64,000 nt of DNA from a bacterium (GTDB lineage: Bacteria; Myxococcota; UBA727; JAUIJE01), in the NCBI GenBank assembly GCA_030431455.1, contig JAUIJE010000002.1, positions 193,294 through 257,293 on the forward strand, in the 5' to 3' direction. Each line of letters opens with the position of its first letter. Positions within the stretch are counted from its first letter, which is position 1. Below, in pieces: positions 246-32,558 of this stretch. The notes under the pieces were generated by a model that had not been told where the DNA came from, made no database searches, and saw nothing but the letters and a program-made list of their open reading frames with translations. The position numbers were made by a program, and so were the translations under genes.

Positions 246-1820
246 TCACAACGTCACGCGCTCGATGCGGCGCACCCACCCGTCTGTGTCGTCGTCACCT
301 TGCGCAAACCGCGCCACCACGTTGAACACCTCGTCGGAAAAGCCGCCGACGTTCAAAATGTCCTGCGCGTTCTGCGCTTGCACCGTGCCGTAGGGCTGAA
401 TGTCAATGCAGACAAGCTTCGCCCCGGGATTGCGCGCACTCAAGATGCGCCAGGCCTCCATGGTGCGGGTGCCGCGGCCGATGCCCGCGTCCACCCACGA
501 TTCGCAATCCGACACCATCACCACCAAGTCCACCCGCGCCTGGTCGCGCACGAGCTTTTCGAGGGGCGCGGCACAGTTGGTGCCGCCCGACGGAATCTTG
601 GTGAGCCCGTCGGCGATGGTGAGCACGGTGTCCCGCGGGTTGAACGCGTGCTCGACCACCCGATCGTGGAACGGGATGAGCCGCGCCCGGTTGTTCTTCC
701 GCACCATCGCCGCCCCGAAGAGCGCGGCCACGTCGAGACAGCGCACCGCGGTGGTCGACCCGCGCCGGTACCCGGTCACCGGGCTCTGCATCGACCCCGA
801 CACGTCGATGCACACCGCCACGTCGCCGTCGATGCGGGGCACTTTTTGGAGCGCGACCTCCATCGCGTCCTGCAGCGCATCGGTGATGGGCCGCGGCATA
901 CCCCACGCGTTTTTGTACGCGGTCATCAACTGGTACGGGAACACCCGCGCCTTTTTGATCTCCTCCTTGTCCGCCAGGCGCTTGGCGATGGTCCGCACGA
1001 GGCGGGCATCGGTGAGCACGCCGTGGCGCGCAAACGTGTTCAAGTTCATGCGCGTCATCTGCCAACCGGCATCGCGCGCCACCTGCTTCCAGTCCTCGCG
1101 GTCGAGCCCGAGGCTCTGCACCATTTGGAACGGCACCTTCGGGGGCACCGCCCGACGAGAACCCGCCTGACGCAAGGCCTTGTAGGCCTCGTACTGCTGG
1201 ACCAGGTCCGGCAATGCCTCTGCGTCCACGTCCTTGCCGAGCAAGTACCCGTAGAACGCCGCGCGCTTCTCGGTCGCGGGCTTGGGGTGCACCATCTTGA
1301 TGATGTCCGCCATGCTCGGCGACTGGCCCACCGACTGGCGGAACAGCCACTCTTCGTCCCGCCCCGCCAACCACTCGCGCACCATGCGCTTGGGCCGGGT
1401 CCCGAGGGATTTACGGGGCACCGCCCCCGAGCGCATGATCTGCACAAAGTTGCGCAGCATCTTGCCGTTGTCGATCACGCGGCCGAAGATGTGCTCGGCG
1501 AGCTCGCCATGCTCGACGGTGAGCAGCGCCAAGAGCAGCGCGGGCACGTCCTTCATATACATTTTTTCGCGCATGTAGACCGCGCACTGGGCCACGAAGG
1601 CAGGATCGTCGCCGGCCACGTCGATGGCCGCCATCAACACCTCTTGCAGCTGGGTCTCGGCCCCCGCGTAAAAGGTGCGGTTGAGGCACCCGGTGGCGGT
1701 GTATTGGGCCAACGCCTGCTTGGCGGTGAGCTGGTAGGCCTTGCCTCCAGCTTCATTGCGCACGGTCGCGCGCGGAATGAGTTTGCCCACCACAGATTGA
1801 AACAAAGTTTTGTTGGCCAT
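246..1820 (-). CDS. rsr: Ro60-like ribonucleoprotein Rsr, with a TROVE domain and a C-terminal vWA domain
   Basis: 525 aa. It has a TROVE-like N-terminal region and a vWA domain with the MIDAS motif D-V-S-G-S-M (CIDVSGSM). The RBS GGGAGG lies 6 nt upstream of the ATG at 1820. The ORF-track start at 2006 is rejected because the terminator hairpin lies upstream of it. Confidence 0.88.
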   Translation of the reverse strand: MANKTLFQSVVGKLIPRATVRNEAGGKAYQLTAKQALAQYTATGCLNRTFYAGAETQLQEVLMAAIDVAGDDPAFVAQCAVYMREKMYMKDVPALLLALLTVEHGELAEHIFGRVIDNGKMLRNFVQIMRSGAVPRKSLGTRPKRMVREWLAGRDEEWLFRQSVGQSPSMADIIKMVHPKPATEKRAAFYGYLLGKDVDAEALPDLVQQYEAYKALRQAGSRRAVPPKVPFQMVQSLGLDREDWKQVARDAGWQMTRMNLNTFARHGVLTDARLVRTIAKRLADKEEIKKARVFPYQLMTAYKNAWGMPRPITDALQDAMEVALQKVPRIDGDVAVCIDVSGSMQSPVTGYRRGSTTAVRCLDVAALFGAAMVRKNNRARLIPFHDRVVEHAFNPRDTVLTIADGLTKIPSGGTNCAAPLEKLVRDQARVDLVVMVSDCESWVDAGIGRGTRTMEAWRILSARNPGAKLVCIDIQPYGTVQAQNAQDILNVGGFSDEVFNVVARFAQGDDDTDGWVRRIERVTL

Positions 1821-2002
1821 CGTGTCCCTCCCGGCAAATGTCCTGGGTTGCGGAAGACACTGCGCGAGGCGGGCCAACTTTCGTCGGTGACGTAAGATGC
1901 TGTTTTTATTGGATATTGTGAATCGTGGGCGGTTCCGGATTGATACAATGCGCTCGTATATTATCCAGCGAGATAGGCGATGCGCACGGTGCGGCCGCGG
2001 CC

Positions 2003-2047
2003 CCAAAAAAGGTGCGGGGGCCCGGCGACAAGCACCGGACCCCCGCT
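2003..2047 (-). terminator. Rho-independent terminator of the fasciclin gene
   Basis: On the minus strand a 12-bp GC stem GCGGGGGTCCGG/CCGGGCCCCCGC with a 9-nt loop is followed by ACCTTTTTTGG. It lies directly 3' of the stop at 2087. Confidence 0.6.
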
Positions 2048-6908: not shown

Positions 6909-6925
6909 TGGCACAGCCCGTGCTT
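6909..6925 (+). promoter_or_regulatory. Sigma54 (RpoN) promoter with -24/-12 elements
   Basis: The sequence is TGGCACAGCCCGTGCTT. GG sits at 6910..6911 and GC at 6922..6923, which gives the canonical 12-nt spacing and matches TGGCAC-N5-TTGCW at the conserved positions. It lies ~45 bp upstream of a small ORF that has a strong RBS. Confidence 0.55.
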
Positions 6926-7141: not shown

Positions 7142-8554
7142 ATGCCTGTCGCGGTGAGCCGCGGCACCCTCGCCAACCTACGAGGCACCATCGTCACCGA
7201 CCACGCGTCGGGGACCCCGGTGGTGCGCACCTACCGCTTGGTGGTGAGCGACGGCCCGGACCAGGGCAAAGAGCACGTGCTCGAGCTCGGCACCACCTTG
7301 GTGGGCAGCCATCCCTCGACGGACTTTGTGCTCACCGACCCGCGGGTGTCGCGCCGGCACTGCGAGCTGCGGGTGGTCGCCGACGGTGTCCAGGTTCGGG
7401 ACCTGGGCAGCAAAAACGGCATCTTCGTCGGCCGGGTCAAGGTCGAGCAAGCGGTGTTGCTCCCCGGGGCCAAGCTGCGGCTCGGCGACACCAAAATCGC
7501 GGTGCACAACCTCGACGCGTCGGTGGAGGTGGGAGACCTCGCCACCTTCGGCGACCTGCGCACCGAGAGCCCGGCGATGAAATCGGTGTTCGGCCTTCTG
7601 TCCCGGGCCTCGACCTCGGACGCGACCATTCTCCTCGAGGGCGAGACGGGGGTGGGCAAGGACGTGCTCGCGCGCACCATCCACGCGCAGAGCCACCGGG
7701 CCAAAGGGCCGCTGGTGGTGTTCGACTGCAGCGCGGTGTCCGAGTCGCTGATCGCGGGGGAGCTGTTTGGGCACAAAAAGGGCGCGTTCACCGGGGCGAC
7801 CACCGACCGGGCGGGGGTGTTCGAGGAGGCCGCGGGGGGTACGGTGTTCCTCGACGAGGTGGGCGAGCTCAGCCTCGACCTTCAGCCAATGCTGTTGCGT
7901 GCCCTGGAGAACCGCCAGGTGCGCCGGGTGGGCGAAGCCAAGAGCCGGGACATCGACGTGCGGGTGGTGGCGGCCACCAACCGGGACCTGATGGCCGAGG
8001 TCAAAGCCGGGCGGTTTCGCCAGGACCTCTTTTACCGGCTCGCCATCGTCAAGGTCTCGGTCCCGCCCTTGCGGGAGCGCAAGGCGGACCTGCCCTTGTT
8101 GGCCAAGGTGCTGCTCGAGCGGCTCGGCCTGTCCGGCGACGTGCTCACCCGGTCGGACATGCGCGCGCTCACCGCCTACGACTGGCCCGGCAACGTGCGC
8201 GAGCTCAAGAACATGCTCGAACAGTCCATGGCCTTGTCCGACGAGCACGAGTTCGTGCTCCTCGGTCCCCGGGGGGCGAACGAGCCGGGCCCGCCCACCG
8301 CCGTCGACGAGGACGGTGACGACGACGATTTTGGTGAGGGCGAAAACACCATGACCGGGGTGGGCGGCCCCCTCGACGTCAAAAAGCCTTACAAAGAGGC
8401 CCGCGAAGATGTGCTCCGCTCGTTCGAGCAGCGCTACATCGAGTCGTTGCTCAAGGCCCACGACGGCAATGTGTCGGCCGCGGCCCGGGCCGCGGGCATC
8501 GACCGCAATTACGTCTACCGGCTGATGAAGCGGTTCGGCATCGAAAAGCCCTGA
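7142..8554 (+). CDS. Sigma54-dependent transcriptional activator with an N-terminal FHA domain
   Basis: It has an FHA domain (CELRVVADGVQVRDLGSKNGIFVG), an AAA+ domain (GETGVGKD, GAFTGA, the ESELFGH-like ELFGHKKG) and a C-terminal Fis-type HTH. Confidence 0.9.
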   Translation: MPVAVSRGTLANLRGTIVTDHASGTPVVRTYRLVVSDGPDQGKEHVLELGTTLVGSHPSTDFVLTDPRVSRRHCELRVVADGVQVRDLGSKNGIFVGRVKVEQAVLLPGAKLRLGDTKIAVHNLDASVEVGDLATFGDLRTESPAMKSVFGLLSRASTSDATILLEGETGVGKDVLARTIHAQSHRAKGPLVVFDCSAVSESLIAGELFGHKKGAFTGATTDRAGVFEEAAGGTVFLDEVGELSLDLQPMLLRALENRQVRRVGEAKSRDIDVRVVAATNRDLMAEVKAGRFRQDLFYRLAIVKVSVPPLRERKADLPLLAKVLLERLGLSGDVLTRSDMRALTAYDWPGNVRELKNMLEQSMALSDEHEFVLLGPRGANEPGPPTAVDEDGDDDDFGEGENTMTGVGGPLDVKKPYKEAREDVLRSFEQRYIESLLKAHDGNVSAAARAAGIDRNYVYRLMKRFGIEKP

Positions 8555-11759: not shown

Positions 11760-12572
11760 CTACTTGATGTTGCGGATGGCGCCCATCGCGCTTTGGTGCA
11801 TGGTCGAGAGCACGTTGGAGAGGGTCTGCATCATCTGGGAGATTTTGTTCATCTCCTGTTTGATCTTCTCGAACTGAAGTTGGCGGCTGTCGGGACCTTC
11901 GCCCCCGGCGGTGGACCCGGTGCCGCCCGCGGCTTGGCCGGTGGTGCCGCCGGTCGACCCAGTGCCATTGCCCCCGGTGGTCGCGCCGGTGCTGCCGCTG
12001 CCGTTGGCGGGCCCGCTCTCCATCTGACGAATGCTCTGCTCGACCTCTTGTTCCATGTTGCTGATCATCTTCATCATGAACGCGGCGAGGATGTCTTCGA
12101 AGAACATGCCGCCCCCCGACTTGCCGCCGAGCAACGAGGGCAGCGAGCCCGCGCCGAACTGACCGGGGTTGGCGCTGCGCATCTGACCGGTCATCGGGCG
12201 CGCCACGTCGAGGGGATCATTGCCGAGCGAACGGTCCGCGCTCGACGACGCCAAGGGCGACATCGGCGCGCTTTGCATCTCGCCGTTCGGAGGTTGCGGT
12301 TTGTTGGCTTGGACCTCGGACAACGCCTGGGCCACCGCGTTCATGGCTTTGGCTTTGGCCCCTTCGATCATGGCTTTGACCGAGTCGCTGGCGCCGCCTT
12401 GGATGTCTTCGAGCTTCTCGATCTTTTGGAAGACGTCTTTGAGCTCTTTGGTGAGGCTCTGCATCACCGACTGGGCTTTGCCGATGTCTTTGGCGTCGGC
12501 CTTGATGTCCTGCAGCGCGTTCTTGAAGAGGTCGAAGTTGAAGTTCTGGGCGGCGGGGCTGGAAACGTTCAT
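11760..12572 (-). CDS. Hypothetical protein rich in Gln, Met, Lys and Gly, with coiled-coil character
   Basis: 270 aa with clearly lower GC and Lys-rich codon use than its neighbours. The amino-acid composition is diverse, unlike the antisense artefact ORF at 11682..12680. Confidence 0.7.
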   Translation of the reverse strand: MNVSSPAAQNFNFDLFKNALQDIKADAKDIGKAQSVMQSLTKELKDVFQKIEKLEDIQGGASDSVKAMIEGAKAKAMNAVAQALSEVQANKPQPPNGEMQSAPMSPLASSSADRSLGNDPLDVARPMTGQMRSANPGQFGAGSLPSLLGGKSGGGMFFEDILAAFMMKMISNMEQEVEQSIRQMESGPANGSGSTGATTGGNGTGSTGGTTGQAAGGTGSTAGGEGPDSRQLQFEKIKQEMNKISQMMQTLSNVLSTMHQSAMGAIRNIK

Positions 12573-12834: not shown

Positions 12835-12850
12835 TGGCACGAGCCCTGCG
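12835..12850 (+). promoter_or_regulatory. Sigma54 (RpoN) promoter
   Basis: The sequence is TGGCACGAGCCCTGCG, with GG at 12836..12837 and GC at 12848..12849 at the canonical spacing. It is followed by a 23-codon mini-ORF (12888..12959) and then the lipoprotein gene at 12987. Confidence 0.55.
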
Positions 12851-12986: not shown

Positions 12987-13823
12987 ATGCCCCGGTCTTT
13001 CTCTCGTTCATTGTTGTCCGCGTTCGTGCCCACGGCTTGTGCATGGGCATTGTCCGCTTGTCCCGTGGCCGGCGACGCCTGCCTCGCAGACGAGAACTGT
13101 CCTTTCGACCAAGTGTGCGTCGACGCCATCTGTGAATGGCCGATGCCGGGACAAGGCCTCGGAGGCCCCGGGGATAAGCCCCCGGTCCGCCGCGACGACG
13201 CGGGCGTGGTTCTCGCCGACGCCGGGTTCGACGGCACCGAGGACGCTGGTCGACCCGCGGACGCAGGGCCCGGCGCGCCCGACGCCCACGTCGCGACCGC
13301 CGACGCGGGGGCGCACACCCTCGACGCGGCCGAGCCCGAGGCCGACGACGCGGGGGCGCCCGATGCGGCCGGGAACGGACTGGACGCCGGCGCGCCCGAT
13401 GCCGTCGTCGTCGAGCCCGAGCCAGAACCAGAGCCAGACCCGGTCCCGGTGTGCGGCGACGTGTGGGAGCCGCCCCCCGCGAACTGTCCCGCGGCGTGCA
13501 CCGGCGGCTGCGCGGACGGGGTCTGCCACGTGGACTGCAGCGGAACCGGCTTGCTGTTCGGCTGCGTCAACGCCGACATCACCTGTCCCGAGGGCATGCC
13601 CTGCGACGTGCAATGCACCGGCTGGGGCGCGTGCAAGAACGTGCACGTCGATTGCGCCGACAGCGCCCCCTGTTCGATCACCTGCGCGGGCCAGTCCTCC
13701 CAATGTGACGACGCCAGGTTCCACTGTGGGGACAACCAATGTCACATCCAAGCCGAGCCCACGCTGTTCGGCCAGGAAGTTGACTGCAACGACTCTTGCG
13801 ACTGCCAGTACGAGGAGCTGTGA
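12987..13823 (+). CDS. Cys-rich secreted lipoprotein
   Basis: It has a signal peptide with a lipobox (LSAC), a Pro/Glu/Ala-rich linker (PEPEPEPDP) and a Cys-rich C-terminal domain. The RBS AAAGGA precedes the start. Confidence 0.75.
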   Translation: MPRSFSRSLLSAFVPTACAWALSACPVAGDACLADENCPFDQVCVDAICEWPMPGQGLGGPGDKPPVRRDDAGVVLADAGFDGTEDAGRPADAGPGAPDAHVATADAGAHTLDAAEPEADDAGAPDAAGNGLDAGAPDAVVVEPEPEPEPDPVPVCGDVWEPPPANCPAACTGGCADGVCHVDCSGTGLLFGCVNADITCPEGMPCDVQCTGWGACKNVHVDCADSAPCSITCAGQSSQCDDARFHCGDNQCHIQAEPTLFGQEVDCNDSCDCQYEEL

Positions 13824-14905
13824 TGCGACACGCCATCGACCGCGCGTGGTCCTATTTGGTGGGCCACCATTTCGACCAGGCCGAGGGCCTGCTCCACAAA
13901 CAGAACGAGCGCGATCCGCTCACCCAATGTCTCTTGGCCCGCCTCGAGATCGCCCGGCGCCAGACGCCGTCCGCCCTCGAGACCCTCAAGATGCTCACCC
14001 AGTCCAACCCGGACAACGTCGAGGTGCACGTCCATCTCGCCGCGGGCTTGTTCGCCATGGGCCACCGCAAGGCCGCCACCGAACAAGCCGAGCACGCCCT
14101 GCACCACGGCGCCCGCCACGCCGACCTCGAGGTCGTGCTCGGGGCCGACGCGCTCCGGCTCGGCGACGTCGACGAGGCCCTGGCCTGCTACGACGCCGCC
14201 CTCGGGCAATGCCCCACCTATGTCGCGGCCTGGCTCGGCAAAGCCCGCGCCCTCACGCACACCGGCGCGGTGGGCGACGCCGAAGCCGCGTACTTCCGCG
14301 TGGTCGAGCTCGCCCCCCAGGACCCCACCGCCTGGCGCGAGCTCATCCGCCTCGAGCTCAACTACGGCGCGCACGACGCCGCGCGCCAGAACTTCGAGGC
14401 CGCGCGCGGCTTTTTGCGCCGTCCAGAGGTGCTCGACGAGTTCGCACCCCATTTCGTGGCCGACGACGAGCCCGCCGAAGACGCATTTTGGGAAGAGCTG
14501 AACGATCTCTTGTCCAGCGCCGAGAAGAGACCCGCCGCGGTCATCGAGCAGGTCTTCGCCCAGCTCTCCACCAAATGGCGCGACGACGAGCGCTTCGCCG
14601 CGGTCCGCGCCGCCACCGCGCTCTTGTTGTCACAACCCGCGCAGATGACGCGTTCGATCCACGCCTTGACCCAGCTGGTCAAAGACAAGCAACACCGCCG
14701 CTGGCAAACGCTCTGGCTGCTCGGGGCCTTGCAGCTCTCGGACACCCCGCTGTTCCACCCGCACCTGGCCGTGACCTACCTCGAGGAGGCGGTGAAGATG
14801 GCGTACGACAACCGGCTGGTGGTCGAGACCCTGCAGGACGGCTATCGCCGCGCCGGCCGCGAGCGACTGGCCGAGGCGTTGACCGAGCGGGTGCGCGCGT
14901 TGTGA
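13823..14905 (+). CDS. TPR-repeat protein
   Basis: It is overlap-coupled to the upstream gene by an ATGA stop/start and contains several TPR-like helical repeats. Confidence 0.8.
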   Translation: MRHAIDRAWSYLVGHHFDQAEGLLHKQNERDPLTQCLLARLEIARRQTPSALETLKMLTQSNPDNVEVHVHLAAGLFAMGHRKAATEQAEHALHHGARHADLEVVLGADALRLGDVDEALACYDAALGQCPTYVAAWLGKARALTHTGAVGDAEAAYFRVVELAPQDPTAWRELIRLELNYGAHDAARQNFEAARGFLRRPEVLDEFAPHFVADDEPAEDAFWEELNDLLSSAEKRPAAVIEQVFAQLSTKWRDDERFAAVRAATALLLSQPAQMTRSIHALTQLVKDKQHRRWQTLWLLGALQLSDTPLFHPHLAVTYLEEAVKMAYDNRLVVETLQDGYRRAGRERLAEALTERVRAL

Positions 14906-15059
14906 TGTGGGTGGTCGTCGTTGAGGGCTCGCGGTTCGAGCTCGATGTGCTCGATGAGGTGCCCACGCTGCTCCCCGTGCGCCGGCCGCGCGAGGAGGAG
15001 GACAGGGGGAAGATGACGAAGTGGATGAGGATGAGGTGGATGGGGAATAGCGGCGGGTG

Positions 15060-15680
15060 TGGGCGGGGACGATAACGAACGCTCGCGTCGGTGAGGTTCG
15101 CGAAGGTTTGCCGCGTCGACGTTGGGCTTGCGTGCTCGTGTGCGGCGGCGCTGACGCTCGGTTGCGGTGGTGTTGCTCGTGCGGTTTTGTGTGCGAGGGA
15201 TGCGACGACGAGGGCGCGCGACGGGTGAGGTGCGAAGGCTCGCTGCCGGGTCTTGGCACGAGGGGGACTCGGTTTGCTCTTCGCGCGCTTCGCGTGCGAA
15301 GAAGCGATCGTGGGCGTTGTGACGGGTGAGTCGACGAGGTTCGCTGCGGGTTTATTGGATCGAGTTGGGGTCGCGTCCCTCGTGCGCTTTTGCGCGCGAG
15401 GAGATGAAGCTAGGCGACGAGGTTCGCTGCGGCTTCGATTGTCGAGATCGGGACCGCATCTCTCGCGCGCTTTTGCGCGCGAGAGATGCGGTCGACGGGG
15501 TTCGCTGCGGATTCGATGTGTCGAGATGGGGCGTCAACCTCGCGCGCATTTGCGCGCGAGGAGATGAAGCTAGGCGGCGAGGTTGGCTGCGGTTTCGATA
15601 GGGCGAGCTCGGGACCGAAACCCTCGCGCGCTTTTGCGCGCGAGGAAAAACGCCACCCGCGCATCGCGCGGGTGACATTT
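15060..15680. repeat. Tandem array of ~85-bp units, each containing a strong GC hairpin with a TTTT loop
   Basis: At least five copies of CTCGCGCGC-TTTT-GCGCGCGAG are present, including a 15-bp perfect stem at 15456..15489. The spacers share the motif GAGGTTCGCTGCGGNTTCGAT. The array sits between convergent genes. Confidence 0.7.
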
Positions 15681-15684
15681 GTGG

Positions 15685-18600
15685 CTAGTCAGCGCCCCAG
15701 CAGGCGACCTCGCCGTTGAATCTGAGTCCGCATGTGTGATGGGCGCCGGCCGCGACGTCCTTGAACGGACCCGGCGGAGAGTCGTTTTCGCCGTACCTCG
15801 CTTCGGCAGAGCCCCAGCATTCAATTTCGTTGTTGACTCTGAGGCCGCAGTGCCGGGATGCCCCGACCGCTCCCACGACTTTTTTGAATGCGCCAGGCGG
15901 GGAGTACGTTGAAGAGGCAGAGGCGCCCTGAAAACACTTCACTGTGTTGTTGGGCAGTGTGCCACAGACCACCAATCCCACGGTCGCTACCTTGACAAAG
16001 GGCCCTTCGGACGCGGGCACGTATGAGGGGACGTACGGCGACACCCCTCCCCAACAGACGATGGCGCCGTCAAACTCGTGCACCGCGCAACCCACGCCCG
16101 AGGCAACGCTGACATCATCGTAGATGAGGTCGGGCGGTCCCCCTCCCGAAGTCCAGCCTTTGCATTCCAACGTGCCGTCGTTTCGCAACGCGCAGGCGCC
16201 GAAATCGGAGGCAGCCAACTTCGTCACTCCGCCGGCGGCGCTGAACGGAGGGAGCGTCTTGCCCCAGCATTCGACCCCGTTTCCACGGTATCCGCAGGTG
16301 CGATTCGCGCTAATCGCCAATTGGTAGTAGCTGAGCCACGGCGCGGGACCTCCGTAGCCGGGGTCGGCCCCCCAACACCGAACGGTTCCGTCCGTTGTGA
16401 TCCCACACGTCCGGCTGCCCGCGGCTTCAATTGAGCGAAACCGGACCGGGGGCGGGCTGGACTGTCCTGCGATCACATCGTTCCAACAGACCAACCGGCC
16501 AGTTGTTCCCGGGGCACGGGCGCACGCGAGCCCTGCCCCCACTCGCGGCCCGTAGAGCCGCTCGTCGGGGACGTTCTTCTCAATGCCCGTTTTCGTACGC
16601 CCCCAACACGTGATCGACCCCTGGTCGTTCGTCGCACATCCCTTCTCTTCACGAAACGCGAAATCGATAAACGTTCCTGCTGGAGCAGACAAACTCGGCG
16701 CCGTGAACGGGCCCCAACAGGCAACGTTTCCGTCCACGGTGAGACCGCACTGGTGCTCATCACTGGTGTCTAGGCTAACGATTGTGGTGTTTGGCCACTC
16801 CCCAGCGAAGTCGGCGGCGCCTGGACCCCAACACTCCCAAAGTCCTTGGGAGAGGCCACAAACGTGGTTCGGGCCCGCGTCCAGATCCATAAACAGTGTT
16901 GTTGGTGCGTAGTCGATAACGCCCCAACAGGTCGTGGTCCCGTCGAGCGCGAGTGAGCAGGTGTACCGGTCGCCCGCTACAAGTCGGCCGTTGAGGTCAG
17001 GTGGCGGCGAGGCCTGACCCTCGTTGTCCGCTCCCCAGCAGTGGACTTCCCCGGCAACGTCGTTTCCACAGAAATGCCCCATGCCCGTCACGATTGATGT
17101 CAGGTAGATCGTGGATAGCTCTGGGAAGTACTGCACATAGGCTGATTCACCCCAATACATGCAAATTGGCTGTCCGTTGACCAGCGTGCAAACTCGCTCG
17201 CCTCTGACATCAAAGCTTGAAAATCCTTCGCACCCGTCGTTGTTTGGACAACACATGGGTCCGTTCGGCCCCTCGATACACAGACCACCATCGGTGCAAG
17301 GGTTTGGAGCGCAGCTTTCGAGTTTACAAGCAGCACTGCACCCATCGCCGTCAACAAGGTTTCCGTCGTCACATTGTTCTAGTCCCGCCTCGACGCCATC
17401 ACCGCAGTTTTCGACGACGCATGTGTCACTGCACCCGTCGCCGGAGGTGGTGTTTCCATCGTCACAGGACTCCAGAACGTTGTTTACAATCCCGTCGCCG
17501 CAGAACTCTATTTTACAGGTGGGGCCGCAACCGTCGTTTGGAAGGTCGTTTCCATCGTCACACTCCTCACCAGGGTTGCCAATCTCGTTGCCACAGAACT
17601 CGACGGTGCAGGTAGAGCTGCACCCGTCCACGGATACGGTGTTTCCGTCATCGCACTCTTCAGACACGTTGTTGGTGATGCCGTCGCCGCAGTATTCAAT
17701 CACACACGAAGCCGAGCACCCGTCTCCGTTCACGAGGTTGCCGTCATCACAACCTTCGGGTGAACTTAGAACGCCGTCGCCGCAGCCTTCGACCAAGCAC
17801 TCCGATGAACACCCATCGCCGTTGGTCGCATTTCCATCGTCGCAAACCTCTGCGCCCCCGTCGTTGAGGAGGCCATCCCCACAAACCTCCGCCTGACAAC
17901 TCGCATCGCAACCGTCACCAGAGATGGTGTTGCCATCGTCACATTCTTCTTCCGTGTTGTTCACGACCTCATCGCCGCAGAACTCAATTTTGCAGACGGC
18001 GCTGCAACCGTACCCACCCCAGAAGGAAGCATCGTCGCATTCTTCGTTGCGGTCGTTCGTGATCCCGTCGCCACAGAACTCGATTACGCAGTCTTCGGCG
18101 CAACCGTCACCAGACAGTGTGTTTCCGTCATCGCATCCTTCGCCGTTGTTCTTGACGCCATCTCCACAGAACTCAACAGCACAGTTGAAGCATCCATCTC
18201 CCGGGGCCGTGTTTCCATCATCGCAAGCCTCTCCGTTTTGGATGACCCCGTCACCACAAACGGCGGTTTCGATGCCGCAGCTGCTGCTGCAACCGTCCCC
18301 ATCCAACGCGTTCCCGTCGTCGCACGCCTCAGTTCCGCCGTTGTTCACAACACCATCGCCACAGAACTCCACAACGCAGGTTGAATCACAACCGTCCCCA
18401 GCAACAACATTGCCGTCATCACAAGCTTCGGTCCCGCCGTTGTTCACAACGCCGTCCCCGCAGTACTCCGTCACGCACAGCTCATCGCAACCATCGCCTG
18501 GGACCGCATTTCCATCATCACAGGTCTCCGTCGCGTTGTTGACTTCACCATCTCCACAGAACTCGATGACACAGATGTCACTGCAGCCGTCGTTGGCGAT

Positions 18601-32455: not shown

Positions 32456-32558
32456 CGTCGGTCTCCCACAATGAAACTGGACAATGTTGCCGGTTCAGGC
32501 CCCGAAACGAAAAGAGGGAGGGCGACCCCTCCCTCTTTTGTTCAGCGCGAGGCGTGCA

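Follow-up and report, generated by a model that had tools for sequence, protein, structure and literature searches.

A non-coding tandem array of hairpin-bearing units between two convergent genes in a Myxococcota bacterium

REP/BIME elements are thought to protect the upstream mRNA and to modulate transcription. The MIRU family of mycobacteria occupies ~40 loci and is not centered on a strong palindrome. LhrC-type small RNA (sRNA) arrays and ToxI-type type III antitoxins are head-to-tail repeats that give several similar structured RNAs. As reported previously, dispersal is part of the definition of REP, REPIN, and BIME elements, and two REPs in inverted arrangement form the mobile REPIN unit (PMC3116915, PMC3337134). 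The mycobacterial MIRUs have been described as an example of intergenic minisatellites, or VNTRs (PMC3635867).

Here, a tandem array of GC-rich hairpins was analyzed in 64,000 nucleotides of DNA from a Myxococcota bacterium (the whole stretch is referred to as the window). The array was tandem, non-coding, private to one lineage, and unstable. In addition, we infer that it is transcribed and serves at most as an RNA barrier or stabilizer. The array is real but fairly ordinary.

Genomic setting and architecture of the array

The array lies between a TPR gene (+) and a DUF4215/RCC1 gene (-), which are convergent and separated by a gap of 779 bp (14906-15684) (Table 1). The TPR gene is part of a + strand operon of three genes (12987-13823, 13823-14905, and 14905-15075). 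The last of these, a small ORF, showed a gene-like GC content over the codon positions (0.63, 0.47, and 0.86) and was called as a gene in Logan contigs, and its C-terminal half was frame-shifted in a related contig, L003. Because the small ORF is gene-like, the true gap is probably 15076-15684, which is nearly filled by the units and the terminator. Thus, the preliminary description, in which the array filled the 780-bp gap, applied to the region from 15087, where the recognizable units begin, but not to the first 170 bp. The small ORF may hold a further decayed hairpin relic at 14971-14997. An origin of the array from the small ORF was considered and rejected, as the similarity of this site to the U1 hairpin was marginal (13 of 500 shuffles). 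A G-quadruplex-type run, GGGG-N9-GGG-N3-GGG-N1-GGGG, was observed on the + strand at 15042-15068, just before the first recognizable unit.

The giant gene is built as a tandem array in its own right, with 36.5 copies of a 93-bp unit and a 285-bp super-period. Its GC content was 0.60 to 0.63, compared with 0.65 to 0.72 around it, and its GC3 was only 0.72. The Logan assemblies broke off ~1027 codons from the 3' end of this gene. The DUF4215 homologues were named as Polyangiaceae, Sandaracinaceae, and Myxococcota MAGs, which puts the window within Myxococcota or close to it. Two nearby orphan genes had no family match: 11760-12572 (-) encodes a 270-aa coiled-coil, Gly/Thr-rich protein with a weak WXG100-like N terminus, and 12987-13823 (+) encodes one of 278 aa that begins with a signal-peptide-like segment and is rich in cysteine in its C-terminal half. 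A link of the locus to defense or toxin-antitoxin systems was rejected. PADLOC returned a weak generic TPR-repeat match for the TPR protein and none for the other four neighbors, NCBIfam gave sub-threshold matches only, and no nuclease match was found among the neighboring proteins.

Table 1. Features of the array and its surroundings, with predicted RNA folding energies
Feature	Position	Strand	Description	Fold on + (kcal/mol)	Fold on - (kcal/mol)
TPR-repeat gene	13823-14905	+	Last long gene of the three-gene operon reading into the array		
Small ORF, 56 aa	14905-15075	+	ATG overlaps the TPR stop codon (GTGATG)		
Decayed unit Ua	15087-15219	+			
Ua hairpin	15177-15198	+	Relic, CTCGTGCGG-TTTT-GTGTGCGAG; three G.U pairs	-10.4	-2.6
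Decayed unit Ub	15220-15329	+			
Ub hairpin	15279-15303	+	Variant stem, TCTTCGCGCGC-TTC-GCGTGCGAAGA; compensatory C-G to T-A pair and one G.U	-21.3	-16.4
Unit U1 (83 bp)	15330-15412	+	Motif GGTTCGCTGCGG at 15338-15349		
U1 hairpin	15378-15401	+	CCTCGTGCGC-TTTT-GCGCGCGAGG; one G.U pair on the + strand	-21.3	-17.7
Unit U2 (78 bp)	15413-15490	+	Motif at 15421-15432		
U2 hairpin	15452-15493	+	Perfect 19-bp stem (15452-15470 / 15475-15493), TTTT loop; outer core pair changed from C-G to T-A	-43.8	
Unit U3 (82 bp)	15491-15572	+	Motif at 15499-15510		
U3 hairpin	15538-15561	+	Loop ATTT	-22.2	
Unit U4, last	15573-15646	+	Motif variant GGTTGGCTGCGG at 15581-15592		
U4 hairpin	15622-15645	+		-23.2	
Predicted bidirectional intrinsic terminator	15646-15682	both	AAAAACGC-CACCCGCGC-ATC-GCGCGGGTG-ACATTTGT; separate, outside the repeat	-18.6	-25.8
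Giant gene, 2444 aa	15685-23019	-	41 cysteine-rich DUF4215 repeat stretches; C-terminal region RCC1-like		

A tandem array was detected by TRF at 15332-15646, with a period of 83, 3.9 copies, and 78% matches; a 161-bp super-period fitted the array better (83% matches). It is the sole long-period non-coding tandem repeat within the 64-kb window. Four well-kept units of 78 to 84 bp each (83, 78, 82, and 84 bp for U1 to U4) span 15330-15656, and two decayed units, Ua and Ub, lie upstream of them at 15087-15329. Judged by the asymmetric flanks, all units have the same orientation, and the array units are 80 to 91% alike with the "spacers" included. The units decay progressively toward the 5' side of the array, and Ua carries an internal duplication of ~40 nt between short direct repeats, which is absent from L003. 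At its 3' end, the array finishes with the U4 hairpin, which directly abuts the terminator.

Each well-kept unit carries the palindrome CTCGCGCGC-TTTT-GCGCGCGAG and the motif GGTTCGCTGCGGNTTCGAT. With up to 3 mismatches allowed, the 22-nt palindrome was found four times on the + strand (15379, 15462, 15539, and 15623), compared with a shuffle expectation of 0.01; two copies were exact and two had one mismatch. The start-to-start spacing was 83, 77, and 84 bp, and 98 to 104 bp in the older units. The spacer motif GAGGTTCGCTGCGGNTTCGAT was also found four times, with 0.00 expected. In the module, a linker that varies separates the 12-nt motif GGTTCGCTGCGG from a GC stem of 10 bp, which is capped by a UUUU loop. 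Among the 14 hairpins in the 64 kb with a perfect stem of 8 bp or more, 4 fell within 15452-15674. The excess of palindromes and motifs, the TRF array, and this clustering of hairpins indicate that the observation is real. The preliminary description of a tandem array with symmetric GC hairpins between convergent genes, with the T run in the loop and a conserved motif shared by the spacers, was thus borne out. Several of its figures changed: the "at least five" hairpin copies became four good copies and two decayed relics, the extended perfect stem was present with a length of 19 rather than 15 bp, and the units were tandem but shorter and less evenly spaced than the regular ~85 bp proposed.

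Two independent Logan assemblies from different runs of the same strain (L010 and L011) were 100% identical to the window over 14890-15700 and encoded an identical TPR protein. Because the array is identical in both, it is not an assembly artefact. A coding repeat was ruled out as well. The unit lengths break the reading frame, and the GC content of the ORFs inside the array was flat over the codon positions (0.59 to 0.69), compared with a GC3 of 0.83 to 0.90 in the two upstream genes; the array is therefore non-coding.

Terminators, transcription, and hairpin conservation

The unit hairpins had been proposed to act as bidirectional terminators. A scan for consensus terminators detected none at the unit hairpins on either strand. 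The unit stems are followed by GAGATGAAG, AGATGCGG, and GAAAAACG on the + strand and by GGTTTCGG, GTTGACGC, AGATGCGG, and GGACGCGA on the - strand, and they lack a 3' T tract because the T run sits in the loop. The terminators at 15646-15682 and 32510-32539, in contrast, do have one, and the proposal was not upheld. The element at 15646-15682 consists of an A-rich flank, a 9-bp GC stem, a 3-nt loop, and a T-rich flank, with the hairpin itself at 15654-15674. On the - strand, its stem is followed by GCGUUUUUCC, 4 nt after the stop codon of the giant gene. From the A-rich and T-rich flanks, it is predicted to be the canonical bidirectional terminator of the TPR and giant gene pair, and the hairpin at 15654-15674 is a better candidate for this role than the unit hairpins. 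The role of bidirectional terminator thus shifts from the repeat hairpins to the adjacent canonical terminator. A textbook bidirectional terminator, AAAAGAGGGAGGG-CGAC-CCCTCCCTCTTTT, was also observed at 32510-32539 between two - strand genes, which indicates that this genome makes use of U-tract terminators.

On the + strand, the stretch from the TPR stop codon to the array held no terminator-like site, and no sigma70-like promoter was found in 14600-16000 in a scan that covered sigma70-like promoters only. Therefore, read-through from the operon would be the simplest source of a transcript. The idea of a sigma54 promoter or enhancer was rejected, as such sites occurred at chance rate in the window. 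A sigma54 activator gene with an N-terminal FHA domain is located at 7142-8554 (+), 6.5 kb from the array, and TGGCAC-N5-xTGC-like sites lie upstream of this gene (6909-6924) and of the TPR operon (12835-12850).

The variation among U1 to U4 was unevenly distributed. Within the hairpin and the 12-nt motif, 5 of 36 columns were variable, compared with 30 of 48 elsewhere (Fisher p = 7e-6, for blocks that were picked after the alignment was seen). Eight hairpins were compared, of which L003 contributed two and the window six. Their 10-bp core helix was paired in 94.9% of the cells, and two pairs had changed on both sides, from C-G to U-A. All seven wobble cells were G.U pairs on the + strand, which are A.C mismatches on the - strand; these wobbles favor an RNA hairpin on the + strand. 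With the G.U wobbles and the two compensatory pairs, all six hairpins of the window are predicted to fold stably as + strand RNA, whereas the decayed ones are weaker on the - strand (Table 1). Moreover, the Ub stem had 0 substitutions in 25 nt between the window and L003, compared with a divergence of 14.7% for the whole of Ub. No claim is made for extra helices beyond the main hairpin, because only four sequences were compared and no compensatory change was seen.

The + strand is rich in G and T (G 252, C 153, T 133, and A 83). This composition fits either selection at the RNA level or a C-to-T bias on the non-template strand, both of which point to transcription of the + strand. A simple mutational bias unrelated to transcription might also have produced it. 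Similarly, the G.U bias could reflect C-to-T mutation on a G/T-rich strand and not selection for RNA pairing. Compensatory changes in palindromes can also arise without selection, through the template switching known as "quasipalindrome correction."

Distribution, instability, and interpretation

No second copy of the unit was found elsewhere in the 64-kb window, with its ~50 intergenic regions, by nhmmer with a unit HMM, and the palindrome and motif patterns at up to 3 mismatches matched only the array. In the Rfam search suggested by the preliminary description, the array matched no family: none reached the gathering threshold in the whole window, and a permissive scan of 14800-15800 with E up to 10 gave only noise (best score 20 bits, compared with thresholds of 100 to 168). 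The window also holds a gene for a Ro60/Rsr-like RNA-binding protein at 246-2006 (-), with TROVE and Ro60-type vWA domains. Bacterial rsr genes usually adjoin Y-RNA-like genes, but at gathering thresholds Rfam detected no RNA family anywhere in the window.

Public collections were searched for the hairpin pattern. Among the GTDB representative genomes, there were two matches, which were set aside because both lie in an unrelated Rhizobiales-type repeat of a Xanthobacteraceae MAG. On two contigs of this MAG (L001 951-972 and L002 5041-5062), an identical 22-nt palindrome, CTCGCGCGCTTTTGCGCGCGAG, was located inside a larger repeated element (…CCTCATCCTGAGGAG-palindrome-CGTCTCGAAGGATGGCC…), which looks like a Rhizobiales-type dispersed repeat, probably unrelated to the array but for the palindrome. 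The six matches in the JGI metagenomes were also rejected, four being in one coding sequence and two being single unrelated hairpins, and none of the six carried the motif. In IMG/VR, the hairpin gave 0 matches, and the motif gave 38 single matches that were attributed to chance, none with the whole unit. The plasmid and phage collections gave no match by blastn, and no description of such an element was found in the literature on myxobacteria. No transposase was present among the 16 window proteins scanned against Pfam, although a RAYT gene, being single-copy, could be located elsewhere in the genome, and no terminal inverted repeats or target duplications were found at the array. A REP- or MITE-like dispersed family, which had been offered as one reading of the hairpins, thus had no member besides the array in the window and nothing related in GTDB, JGI, IMG/VR, the plasmids, or the phages.

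Among 5.8 billion clusters, the TPR protein had a single relative that was 98% identical and no other match exceeding 33%, which indicates that the lineage is barely sampled. A search for orthologous loci with the C terminus of the giant protein returned only paralogues of up to 35% identity or DUF4215 repeat matches. The only diverged comparator was the contig that encodes the 98% identical TPR protein, L003, which ends inside the array. At the four-fold sites of the flanking genes, 17 of 301 positions (5.6%) differed between L003 and the window. The substitution divergence was 10.7% over 14906-15075, 20.5% in Ua, 14.7% in Ub, and 28.6% in U1. In addition, L003 had indels of 41 to 62 nt in the intergenic region, which removed parts of units, and one of its units apparently had no hairpin. 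In the window, one of these indels has the short direct repeats GCTCGTG(T)GCGG on both sides, a signature of slippage. Over the part of the array that the L003 contig covers, unit content thus varies between close strains. The substitutions and the unit-scale indels indicate that the array is unstable and changes faster than synonymous sites. A 62-nt stretch was 92% identical between the U1-U2 and U3-U4 junctions, which, together with the 161-bp super-period, indicates that the last step duplicated a two-unit block.

In the best explanation, to which we give about even confidence, the array is a lineage-private minisatellite that is transcribed as the structured 3' tail of the TPR operon and has at most a passive role of the REP/BIME kind. 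An ~83-bp module would have been amplified head to tail into six recognizable units, four of them intact, most recently by copying two units as a block. The array would grow and shrink by slipped-strand mispairing or unequal recombination, and would for this reason change faster than synonymous sites. The transcript would be a long, highly structured + strand tail that ends at the predicted bidirectional terminator. By analogy with enterobacterial REP/BIME elements, the stem-loops would play a passive part, as barriers to 3'-to-5' exonucleases, as pause sites for polymerase, and as spacers between convergent transcription units. The unit hairpins would be no classical terminators, separate sRNA genes, or mobile element. 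The faster-than-synonymous change and the hairpin loss in L003 argue against strong selection on the whole array, and this model leaves the conserved 12-nt motif without a role.

A minisatellite that arose by slippage around a GC palindrome could also be a by-product with no RNA or DNA role at all, which we regard as somewhat unlikely while taking it seriously. Its hairpins would persist because the units are young and the palindromes are homogenized by templated repair or gene conversion. Evolution 2 to 5 times faster than at four-fold sites with unit-scale indels, confinement to one strain cluster, the progressive decay toward the 5' side, and the apparent loss of a hairpin in L003 are all as expected from such a by-product. 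It fits poorly, however, with the non-random variation among the units, with the oldest units still pairing on the + strand through G.U only, and with a Ub stem that is unchanged between strains while its flanks are ~15% different. The same strand-specific hairpin has a further reading, in which the units are structured sRNA modules, either tandem sRNA genes or a precursor cut to ~80-nt hairpin RNAs, that work as regulators or as a protein sponge. Every unit has a conserved 12-nt, single-stranded-looking motif beside a stable stem-loop, and a 19-bp perfect duplex like that of U2 is in principle long enough for a double-strand-specific RNase. However, there was no Rfam family even at E = 10 and no sigma70-like promoter in or before the units, no unit ends in a U tract, conservation reaches only to one close relative that has already rearranged the units, and the products of the flanking genes are secreted, TPR, and cysteine-rich proteins without RNA-related function. 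Thus, sRNA modules are improbable.

The palindromes could also work as DNA, by binding a dimeric protein (a regulator, a nucleoid protein, or a partition protein) or by extruding cruciforms, and thereby form a boundary. The four palindromes, which are near-perfect and have half-sites of 9 bp around a 4-bp spacer, would suit this function, as would the two spacings of 83 and 84 bp, which are ~8 helical turns; the 77-bp spacing and the 98 to 104 bp of the older units, however, break the helical phasing. Furthermore, the decayed copies lose DNA symmetry (G.T positions) and keep RNA pairing, none of the promoters in the window has such a palindrome upstream, and sigma54-type sites are no more frequent than by chance, so we consider a DNA-level element very unlikely. 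The least probable reading, to which we give almost no weight, is that a mobile repeat of the REP/REPIN/BIME or MITE type is dispersed in many copies over the rest of the source genome and forms a local cluster here. Convergent 3' ends with a short, GC-rich palindrome outside the genes are a typical REP setting, and within the source genome the search covered only the 64 kb. Against this reading, those 64 kb with ~50 intergenic regions hold no other copy, the units are direct and not inverted pairs, terminal inverted repeats and target duplications are lacking, every public collection searched was negative for the element, and the only exact palindrome matches sit in unrelated elements. There is a slim chance that the array encodes a new multi-module structured RNA or a new serial transcription insulator without U tracts. 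With ~83-nt modules that present GGUUCGCUGCGG beside a stable stem-loop, it could be a set of processed small RNAs or a decoy for an RNA-binding factor.

If the minisatellite and 3'-tail explanation is true, the array would be one more case in which high-GC bacteria form long structured 3' regions by amplifying a stem-loop locally, and it would be useful in practice as a hypervariable strain marker for the lineage. Were the array to yield discrete RNAs, or to terminate transcription through its hairpins without U tracts, it would be of more interest, with consequences for our view of how transcripts end in GC-rich bacteria.

Comparison with known systems

Like intrinsic terminators, the array places GC-rich stems of 9 to 10 bp, each closed by a 4-nt loop, where convergent genes end. 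However, a U tract is missing on both strands, whereas the genuine terminators of the window have flanking A and T tracts. The array also resembles a CRISPR in that a 24-bp palindromic repeat recurs regularly, separated by ~55 to 60 bp. As the preliminary description had stated, it is not one: the intervals between the palindromes are themselves repeats, with the 80 to 91% likeness noted above and a shared 12-nt motif. The sole CRISPR-DR match scored 15.6 bits (gathering score 42), was placed on the terminator, and was regarded as noise.

Like tandem sRNA arrays, the array has head-to-tail repeats that could yield a series of similar structured RNAs, but the units showed no sigma70-like promoter or U-tract terminator of their own. 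A type III toxin-antitoxin RNA array was rejected, as no co-directional toxin gene lies downstream; what follows the array is a convergent gene, entered from its 3' end, which leaves no place for one. The unit is also 83 nt long, compared with ~36 nt in type III antitoxins.

With the REP/BIME elements of enterobacteria and pseudomonads, the array shares short GC-rich extragenic palindromes at gene 3' ends, often between convergent genes, and RNA stem-loops that are stable without a U tract. Its palindromes measure 22 to 24 nt and fold at -21 to -23 kcal/mol as RNA. REPs, however, have tens to hundreds of dispersed copies, inverted pairs, and a link to RAYT transposases, whereas the array is a single locus of head-to-tail 83-bp units with no second copy found; it showed neither dispersal within the window nor inverted pairing. 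By analogy, the array would work most like REP/BIME stem-loops, outside the membership of the REP/REPIN family.

Like MIRU-type VNTRs, the array is built of intergenic, head-to-tail units in the range of 40 to 100 bp in a high-GC genome, its unit content differs between close strains, and it changes by slippage. In contrast to MIRUs, it occupies one locus in the sequence examined and is built on a GC stem of 10 to 19 bp; in the strict sense, MIRUs are a unit family at many loci, and the array is a single locus in the window. With head-to-tail non-coding units whose content differs in L003, the array fits the general class of intergenic minisatellites/VNTRs.
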